A DNA stretch of 8,961 nt, taken from IMG/VR virus record IMGVR_UViG_2548876934_000005, one strand, 5' to 3'. Origin of the DNA: a virus. Lineage: Duplodnaviria > Heunggongvirae > Uroviricota > Caudoviricetes. The number at the start of each line of letters is the position of its first letter. Within the stretch, counting starts at the first letter, position 1. The notes under the pieces were generated by a model. The model was given only the letters and a program-made list of their open reading frames with translations, did not search any database and was not told the DNA's origin. This document shows, piece after piece, positions 5,148 to 6,162 of the stretch. The translations under genes were made by a program, and so were the position numbers.

Positions 5148-5171
5148 GCGGGGTCAATGCCCCGCTTTTTT
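5148..5171. terminator. Rho-independent terminator between convergent genes: stem GCGGGG / CCCCGC, loop TCAATG, then T-run
   Basis: Hairpin 5148-5165 followed by TTTTTT on the + strand, seen directly. Lies between the acyltransferase stop and the stop of the minus-strand gene. Confidence 0.7.
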
Positions 5172-6162
5172 ATTTTATCCTGTAATAAGTAGATCCTACA
5201 CTAATGAACTCATATATTCCTTGTGATGACAATGTAGTTATAAGTGTAGGCCCATTATAAATACCGATGGTCTGACTATTAAAATTTACTGATGAAAGAT
5301 CTAGTAAAACCCTGCTCCTAAGAAGCGTTCCATTTAATATAGTTAACTCTGGAAGCATTAGAGTTTTACCAGGTGATAAAGTTCCGCCAAATTTTATTAT
5401 ATTCCTAGAATCATCAGGCCATGGTGAAGCCGAGTTAATATCCGGTATTATTAAAATCTTACCTGAGTCACGATAGTCTGATGTTGAATAGAATGTTCCT
5501 TTACCTGAAGTATGTTCGTTATCATAAATGCCAGCAGGGGCATTTGTGAGAACAGGCTGATTAAATCTAGTACCTGCGAATCTTGCAATATCATGTGCAG
5601 AAGTAGACATCGTTAGTGTTGGTTGCCCATTACCATTAAACCCAATTGCGTTTTCGCCAATACTTGATCTAGAAAATTCATTTACATCAAAGAAACCAAT
5701 ATCAGTGAATCCACCTTCGCTCACTGATTCATGGCTGTTTCCGGTAAATGAAAAGTTAGTAAAACGAGACGAGCATTTAAATGCCGGACCTGATTCTATA
5801 GTGTGGTGCCTACCAAACTTAACACCGGTGAATGTAATGTTATCACCATTTACACAGTCCATAACATTGCTGATGTAACCAGAACCGGAGTTCCATCCAA
5901 TAGAACCGCCTACCCATGAAAAACCATCAACCTCCAGAATGTCAAATATCTTACCGCCTGTAAAAGCATAGTGAGTGCAGTTTGAGAACATACATGACTT
6001 CATTCTGCGGCCACGGAAACCATACTTAGTTCCGAACAGATGGATATTAACAAACTGTCCACCTTCTATTCCTTGAATGCTGCCACCACTCAAATCAGTA
6101 CCACCTACAAATTCTTTGGTCCCATCGACTATGATGTCATTCCACATCCCATATCTTCCCAT
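5170..6162 (-). CDS. Phage tail fibre/tailspike-like protein (beta-helix-like repeats), possibly a 5'-truncated remnant
   Basis: Minus-strand ORF ending at TAA (complement of 5170-5172). The body is rich in G/N/S/T with repeated short beta-strand-like blocks (GDNITFTGVKF, FTNFSFTGNSHESV) that resemble receptor-binding domains of tail fibres or tailspikes. The track ORF runs to 6396, but residues 1-78 are Ser-rich and look like an antisense artefact. Start placed at Met79 (6162); Met84 (6147) is an alternative. Confidence 0.45.
   Translation of the reverse strand: MGRYGMWNDIIVDGTKEFVGGTDLSGGSIQGIEGGQFVNIHLFGTKYGFRGRRMKSCMFSNCTHYAFTGGKIFDILEVDGFSWVGGSIGWNSGSGYISNVMDCVNGDNITFTGVKFGRHHTIESGPAFKCSSRFTNFSFTGNSHESVSEGGFTDIGFFDVNEFSRSSIGENAIGFNGNGQPTLTMSTSAHDIARFAGTRFNQPVLTNAPAGIYDNEHTSGKGTFYSTSDYRDSGKILIIPDINSASPWPDDSRNIIKFGGTLSPGKTLMLPELTILNGTLLRSRVLLDLSSVNFNSQTIGIYNGPTLITTLSSQGIYEFISVGSTYYRIK

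Follow-up and report, generated by a model that had tools for sequence, protein, structure and literature searches.

A probable 5'-truncated tailspike gene, cut within its receptor-binding module, beside an intact modification cassette in a decayed Escherichia coli prophage at argW

The stretch of DNA analysed here (8,961 nt, hereafter the window) starts in the E. coli chromosome and contains a decayed prophage inserted at the tRNA gene argW. Its features are as follows.

1-933: yfdC, E. coli chromosome, the first gene of the window
about 1009-1084, plus strand: tRNA-Arg(CCU) gene argW, with attL in its 3' end (1064-1084)
1209-2402, plus strand: intS, prophage integrase IntS (Pfam; RefSeq annotation)
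2578-3585, plus strand: 335-aa ORF with a signal-peptide-like N-terminus, conserved beside AT3 or Gtr cassettes
4067-5140, plus strand: intact AT3-family (Oac-like) acyltransferase gene (Pfam PF01757; RefSeq annotation)
5147-5166, between the AT3 gene and the tailspike remnant: bidirectional intrinsic terminator hairpin (terminator scan, RNA fold)
5170-6153, minus strand: 3' remnant of a tailspike gene, parent codons 463-789 and the stop codon (homology to the S1 tailspike)
6145-6147, minus strand: first ATG within tailspike-derived DNA, a lineage-specific Leu-to-Met codon
6151-6153: deletion junction at a 3-bp microhomology, ATA on the plus strand (three-way base alignment)
6154-6243, minus strand: chimeric 5' extension of the remnant ORF, made of antisense Ea22 DNA and including ATG 6162 and ATG 6243
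6151-6973, plus strand: ead/Ea22 remnant without its first ~43 codons, on the opposite side of the deletion
7176-7457: lambda ea8.5-like ORF
7771-7971, plus strand: torI, excisionase-type, the last gene of the remnant prophage (RefSeq annotation)
8040-8060, plus strand: attR, a 21-nt copy of the tRNA 3' end, 90% identical, matching 1064-1084
8155-8961 and beyond, plus strand: start of a second integrase gene (P4-type), directly after attR

The surviving parts of the prophage are, in order, attL, intS, the 335-aa gene, AT3, the tailspike 3' end, the Ea22 3' end, the ea8.5-like gene, torI and attR. The two attachment sites enclose an element of ~7.0 kb, compared with ~40.6 kb in an intact relative, and the GC content drops to 30-40% over positions 2400-5800. 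An Rfam scan of the window returned the tRNA as its sole match. The P4-type integrase after attR indicates a further island inserted in tandem; in strain Z1323HEC0011 a rolling-circle Rep-like gene is found on the tandem island (L001 12074-18641) along with the defence genes GapS6a and GapS6b, and the content of this island varies among assemblies of one lineage. A perfect 16-nt copy of the T-arm region of the tRNA-Arg (1054-1069) is located at 7736-7751, just upstream of torI, and may be the trace of an earlier or tandem integration.

On the minus strand, an ORF runs uninterrupted from ATG 6162 to the stop codon at 5170-5172 and encodes 330 aa; it stays open upstream to TTG 6396 (408-aa version). 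The 330-aa product gave a gap-free alignment with the end of the 'phage tailspike protein' of E. coli S1 (residues 460-789 of 789), 320 of 330 positions being identical. Residues 4-330 correspond to S1 residues 463-789 (97% protein identity), and the DNA of the remnant is 97.2% identical to the S1 gene. Judged by this alignment, the resemblance is homology, far beyond chance. The S1 tailspike gene lies at the argW site, as in the window, and is convergent against the corresponding AT3 gene. What is left of it in the window is 327 of the 789 parent codons (the 3' 41% of the gene), and the reading frame is open across all 327 codons, free of frameshifts and stops. The S1 parent carries the Pfam domains Head_binding (PF09008; residues 1-113, E = 5.5e-67) and Tail_spike_N (a TSP1/gp66-type N-domain; residues 143-188), which bears out the tailspike origin that an earlier note on this DNA had proposed for the ORF. 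Both domains fall in the deleted part and are absent from the window copy. Pfam searches with the 330-aa and 408-aa ORFs gave zero matches, and searches of Pfam, NCBIfam and PDB sequences with the fragment and a family profile returned nothing beyond the parent's N-terminal domains, and the module has no catalytic motif on record. Against the receptor-binding module family phrog_22294/phrog_1640, the S1 parent gave a near-complete match (positions 1-778 of phrog_22294, E = 3e-223), whereas the match of the fragment was confined to positions 439-778 of the 779 in the profile (E = 1.6e-64). Missing from the window copy are the N-terminal head-binding domain PF09008 of P22-like tailspikes and a complete central beta-helix, with only residues 463-789 of the 123-789 module present. 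We consider it very probable that the remnant is a 5'-truncated tailspike gene from a P22-like (Lederbergvirus-type), O-antigen-modifying prophage at argW.

The junction was mapped by aligning the window base by base with the tailspike parents of S1 and E2348/69 and with the intact Ea22 gene of strain 162.2. Tailspike identity ends at 6153 and Ea22 identity begins at 6151, with ATA common to both; megablast coverage changes over at query positions 1052-1054. The intact Ea22 gene has 316 codons, the match to the window starts 128 nt into it, and the Pfam family Ead_Ea22 is represented in the window copy by profile positions 41-139 only. Since the tailspike and Ea22 stumps are both 5'-truncated and joined head-to-head, they point to a single illegitimate deletion. 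Compared with the complete 40.6-kb P22-like prophage at argW of CM2010-0578/1, the lost DNA amounts to ~32 kb and comprises the ejection, head, packaging, lysis, replication, immunity and early-left genes. One illegitimate deletion at the 3-bp microhomology took this DNA out of the E. coli prophage, with tailspike codon 462 and codon ~43 of ead/Ea22 as its limits and the whole of the virion, lysis, replication and immunity regions in between. The endpoint presumably had to lie beyond the modification cassette, which is still intact, and its terminator, and the tailspike gene comes next; the remnant probably persists because the endpoint landed in this gene. The deletion, its breakpoint and the missing domains are read directly from these alignments. 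The earlier note had regarded a domain as retained as a unit, but what remains is one side of a deletion that truncated Ea22 as well.

Of the ORF at 5170-6162 that had been assigned to the tailspike, the part from 5170 to 6153 stands, whereas bases 6154-6162, including the start ATG 6162, are antisense ead/Ea22 DNA. ATG 6243, the RefSeq/PGAP start (357 aa), is also in antisense Ea22 DNA. ATG 6147, two codons into the tailspike DNA, is CTG or TTG in all four relatives, and the Leu-to-Met change is private to the window lineage. RefSeq/PGAP lists two intact genes that overlap head-to-head by 113 nt (6131-6243): a 357-aa 'hypothetical protein' for the tailspike stump and a 280-aa 'ead/Ea22-like family protein' for the Ea22 stump. 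The N-terminus of each is the antisense of the other gene, and such entries call for caution in annotation.

The extent of the module to which the fragment belongs was defined by comparison with an 895-aa protein of strain E2348/69, which has an unrelated N-terminal anchor of ~228 aa and, beyond it, is collinear with all of the S1 protein from residue ~123 onwards. The exchanged module is therefore ~667 aa long (S1 residues 123-789), and the window holds its C-terminal 327 residues, or 49%. Twenty-seven full-length relatives align across the whole ~667-aa module, at 36-97% identity to the S1 module, with P22-type, T7-type (PF03906) and other anchors. Because the shared module starts at S1 residue ~123 and the relatives are aligned throughout, the break at residue 463 is not a module boundary. 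The alternative, a module boundary at the break, was considered since the alignment to E2348/69 also ended at ~6150, and it was rejected because the homology between E2348/69 and S1 reaches back to ~123. In the alignment of the 27 relatives, 58 invariant columns lie before residue 463 and 57 after it. The missing N-terminal half includes the invariant residues D261, E272, E283 and E431; about half of the invariant polar residues sit in the retained half, and part of a binding surface could persist in the fragment. By these alignments, the fragment is half of a receptor-binding module, cut in mid-domain, and not a whole domain.

Homologues of the fragment alone were scarce. A nucleotide search of 50,697 phage records gave no match, and a protein search of the phage collection found only ~31% identity, to Vibrio phage proteins. 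The word-indexed homology search with the fragment recovered just three partial proteins, and the full-module query was needed to recover the relatives. Among 1.84 billion representative proteins, eight clusters matched and a stand-alone homologue was absent; every full match among the eight was the C-terminal part of a 670-900 aa protein. One candidate for a natural stand-alone form (P0002, 317 aa, 52% identity) was rejected, since the gene caller had chosen a late start, and tailspike homology carries on before it as far as the edge of the contig.

For the module body, similarity to solved tailspikes was undetectable at the sequence level, and the fold was evaluated by structure prediction. 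AF2, supplied with the alignment of the 27 relatives, gave a full-length model with a mean pLDDT of 68.8, the low values falling mostly in the anchor, which is heterogeneous. The model shows, in order, a helix (222-235), short strands, an inserted beta region (~316-410), regular strand pairs and a C-terminal beta domain. The strand pairs recur every 25-30 residues from about 425 to 650 and cross the break, and strands E435-449 and E461-480 flank it, so that the modelled beta-structure is continuous across the break. Compared with this model, the fragment lacks the capping helix 222-235, the earlier strands and the inserted beta region ~316-410. Aside from head-binding matches, Foldseek searches with the full-length model returned beta-helix enzymes and adhesins (E = 1e-4 to 1e-2), namely the K1 capsule lyase, GH110, PfbA, LKA1 gp49 and CBA120 TSP3. 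Modelled alone, the fragment gave a pLDDT of 85 and a pTM of 0.80, values of AF2 that give no measure of stability, and consists of about seven beta-solenoid coils followed by an irregular segment and, at the C-terminus, a small beta domain. A Foldseek search of the PDB with the fragment model found nothing at E < 0.1, and the list was mostly right-handed solenoids; against BFVD the best E value was 7e-4 (range to 1.5e-3), and the best matches were an uncharacterised protein from a phage, an EPS depolymerase from a Klebsiella phage and a tailspike from a Pseudomonas phage. As no PDB match reached E < 0.1, the fold call leans on which kinds of protein the list contains, on the BFVD matches and on those of the full-length model, and the evidence for a beta-solenoid with tailspike and depolymerase neighbours is moderate. 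The models agree with the earlier description of the retained part as C-terminal and rich in beta-strands, and the structure prediction that the note had proposed as a check gave solenoid coils, so that its refuting outcome, a fold that is not beta-helical, did not arise; the E values of the structural neighbours are marginal. The further step of equating the retained part with the receptor-recognition or depolymerase domain fails, given that it holds only 49% of the module and is cut within both a conserved unit and a run of beta-structure.

Upstream of the remnant, the modification cassette has escaped the deletion. The AT3 gene, with its end at 5140, converges on the tailspike stop at 5170, and the two genes share the hairpin terminator. 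The AT3 product matches PF01757 over profile positions 2-325 of 326 (E = 4.5e-35), and the longest ORF starts at TTG 3983. The gene is ~30% GC, occurs in only three lineages among complete E. coli genomes (the window lineage, S1 and E2348/69), all of them O90/O127, and reaches ~31-34% identity at most to phage-borne homologues in the phage collection. The O127 unit has acetyl groups on L-Fuc, and the O127 cluster encodes its own acetyltransferase (PMC7685785). The 335-aa protein (2578-3585) has no match in Pfam, PHROG or NCBIfam. Its gene lies directly after intS in argW prophages, together with AT3 in S1 or with GtrA/GtrB/DUF6056 in CM2010-0578/1, and it also occurs beside a GtrA/GtrB/DUF6056 cassette in 23AR0998 and beside AT3 in the unrelated prophage of E2348/69; it may be an unrecognised part of a surface-modification or exclusion module. 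Sister prophages carry GtrA/GtrB and a DUF6056 protein in place of the AT3 cassette and keep the tailspike module. Judged from their sequences, the 335-aa gene and the AT3 cassette are intact in an otherwise decayed prophage.

This layout, with an O-antigen-modifying gene (AT3 in the window) convergent with the adjoining tailspike and with intS and argW upstream, is the same in S1 and CM2010-0578/1. The convergent placement that had been likened to that of serotype-converting phages is thus ancestral, being present in intact prophages. In the serotype-converting modules of Sf6 (oac) and of P22 and SfV (gtrABC), the modification gene is likewise convergent with the tailspike and near int/att at a tRNA gene; in the window, the phage is gone and the cassette alone is intact. 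The parent of the window copy has the same head-binding domain as the tailspikes P22 gp9, Sf6 gp14 and HK620 TSP (88-90% identity to the N-terminal residues of Sf6 gp14), is likewise convergent with O-antigen-modifying genes near int, and has beta-helix enzymes as the structural neighbours of its body, whereas the window copy has lost that domain together with half of the body. The 895-aa 'tail fiber/spike domain-containing protein' of E2348/69 (WP_000218894.1) contains the whole 667-aa module at high identity, with the same 335-aa and AT3 genes upstream, but is full-length, has a different anchor and belongs to a different prophage at a different chromosomal site. In E. coli K-12, argW is occupied by the cryptic prophage CPS-53/KpLE1, with intS, yfdGHI and a tfaS pseudogene. 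That element shares with the window remnant the attachment site, the intS and torI ends and the same outcome of decay, an integrase and an O-antigen-modification cassette with a truncated tail-fibre-type gene; it differs in its phage backbone and tail gene, and K-12 shares only ~75 nt with the cassette region of the window.

The host range of the module was examined among 5426 complete genomes. The O90/O127 wzx-wzy segment occurs in 11 of them and the tailspike module in eight, all eight being among the 11. The carriers are Z1323HEC0011, S1, four E2348/69 assemblies, CM2010-0578/1 and 23AR0998, which correspond to five independent strains, and the association is significant with the E2348/69 duplicates collapsed (Fisher p = 1.4e-15). 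E2348/69 is the EPEC prototype (O127:H6), and in the strain with the identical remnant the wzx/wzy genes of the O-antigen cluster are annotated as O90/O127. A relative with 76% identity comes from Salmonella Worthington, which we take to belong to serogroup O13, and the 90% cluster has many Salmonella members. The Salmonella O13 O-antigen is related to that of E. coli O127, according to the title of a paper cited in a review (PMC7685785). A prophage with a single RBP usually encodes a tailspike matching the O-antigen of its host (PMC10408124, in which O127 is not covered). The specificity of the tailspike fits the host O-antigen by genome association, as in serotype-converting modules. The intact parent is almost certainly a tailspike specific for the O90/O127 O-antigen, the association being observed and the activity being inferred from it. 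The proposal that the tailspike recognises the glycan modified by its neighbours is accordingly well supported, by association, for the intact parent and does not extend to the fragment as a receptor-binding domain.

P22-like phages transcribe the native tailspike gene as part of the late operon. This operon is deleted in the window prophage, and a scan of positions 6163-8961 for sigma-70-like sites on the minus strand upstream of the remnant ORF found none. The sole promoter-like site nearby on this strand (6140-6111) lies downstream of ATG 6243, ATG 6162 and ATG 6147. Shine-Dalgarno-like sequences were not found upstream of ATG 6162 or ATG 6243, and ATG 6147 is preceded by a weak GGGAAG at -13 to -8. 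The hairpin at 5147-5166 (RNA fold -19 kcal/mol, z-score -5.5) terminates both convergent genes. Pairwise dN/dS among the five alleles was ~0.06-0.15, which fits a gene functional through most of its history; the window lineage has seven private codon changes, three of them non-synonymous, which may predate or postdate the deletion. dN/dS was also considered as a sign of relaxed constraint and set aside as uninformative, since nearly all of the divergence may predate the deletion.

The exact junction was found in one of 5426 complete genomes, Z1323HEC0011. In this strain IS421 sits between AT3 and the remnant (L001 7718-8830), and the window and five other assemblies are without IS421. The identical 357-aa ORF occurs on eight contigs from at least six assemblies with the same flanks, and these look like one clonal lineage. 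An independent remnant was found in strain 23AR0998 (L006 5972-7330) at the bioA-ybhB site, where IS1 interrupts the tailspike at residue ~355; it retains ~435 C-terminal residues, has 84.6% nucleotide identity to the window and lies beside the 335-aa gene and a Gtr-type cassette. The two remnants break at different points, which argues that leftover 3' tailspike ends arise repeatedly as prophages decay around a cassette that is kept, and that they do not represent a defined domain. The block of the 335-aa gene, AT3 and the C-terminal module of the tailspike is conserved at 93-99% identity in two unrelated prophage backbones, at argW in S1 and near yfgI in E2348/69.

As is typical of pseudogenes left by prophage decay, the window copy is truncated when compared with the intact orthologues of this locus and has lost its native start and the upstream operon. 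With the native start, the promoter, the particle-binding domain and the N-terminal half of the module all missing, we infer that the remnant ORF most likely makes no working protein and is a product of ordinary prophage decay. An expressed, stand-alone role is unlikely on the same sequence evidence. Several observations point the other way: the frame is intact and is inherited unchanged in at least six assemblies, the lineage-specific ATG 6147 has the weak Shine-Dalgarno-like GGGAAG before it, AF2 gives a confident model of solenoid and C-terminal domain with tailspike and depolymerase neighbours, and the parent module is tightly tied to O90/O127 hosts. On these grounds the fragment could be imagined as expressed from a chance antisense promoter and ATG 6243, 6162 or 6147 and acting as a stand-alone O-antigen binder or depolymerase, much as the earlier note had suggested. 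We regard this as quite unlikely: the break falls inside the conserved 667-aa module and removes the half with 58 invariant columns, the search for an upstream promoter-like site was negative, 1.84 billion representative proteins yielded no natural stand-alone homologue, the remnant of 23AR0998 is cut elsewhere, and the uncapped solenoids of beta-helix proteins tend to aggregate. The more specific scenario, in which the chimeric ORF is translated from one of these three ATGs and its coils and C-terminal domain trimerise and bind the O90/O127 O-antigen, is very unlikely. If it held, the product would be a prophage-derived lectin-like or partial depolymerase protein that might, for example, trim or mask the cell's own O-antigen or hinder superinfecting O127-specific phages.

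It is also conceivable, if improbable, that the remnant is useful as DNA only, as a chromosomal store of the O90/O127-specific module that incoming P22-like or other phages could recover, along with the neighbouring cassette, by homologous recombination. The occurrence of the 335-aa gene, AT3 and module block at such high identity in two backbones at two sites is consistent with exchange of this kind, as is the presence of the same module on P22-type, T7-type and other anchors. However, such use would be a by-product rather than a selected function, recombination events with this remnant were not seen, and with half a module only, one crossover would have to fall within the gene. The odd RefSeq pair of overlapping 'intact' genes over the junction might suggest an assembly or annotation artefact, but a closed chromosome and at least five other independent assemblies contain this very junction, so that we give this explanation practically no weight. 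Overall, the evidence favours ordinary prophage decay as the origin and present state of the remnant.

The remnant itself is a textbook product of prophage decay, and the main value of the locus lies in the parent module. The kind of system is well known; what is new here is the uncharacterised, O90/O127-linked tailspike module, which the window contains as a fragment only. The parent module represents a structurally and biochemically uncharacterised tailspike family that is confined, in complete E. coli genomes, to O90/O127 strains, and for the intact module proteins both a solved structure and an isolated phage carrier are absent. The intact versions in S1, CM2010-0578/1 and E2348/69 are candidates for an O127-specific depolymerase or typing reagent, and the intact prophages offer a system for asking whether the linked AT3 or Gtr cassette blocks the phage's own tailspike.
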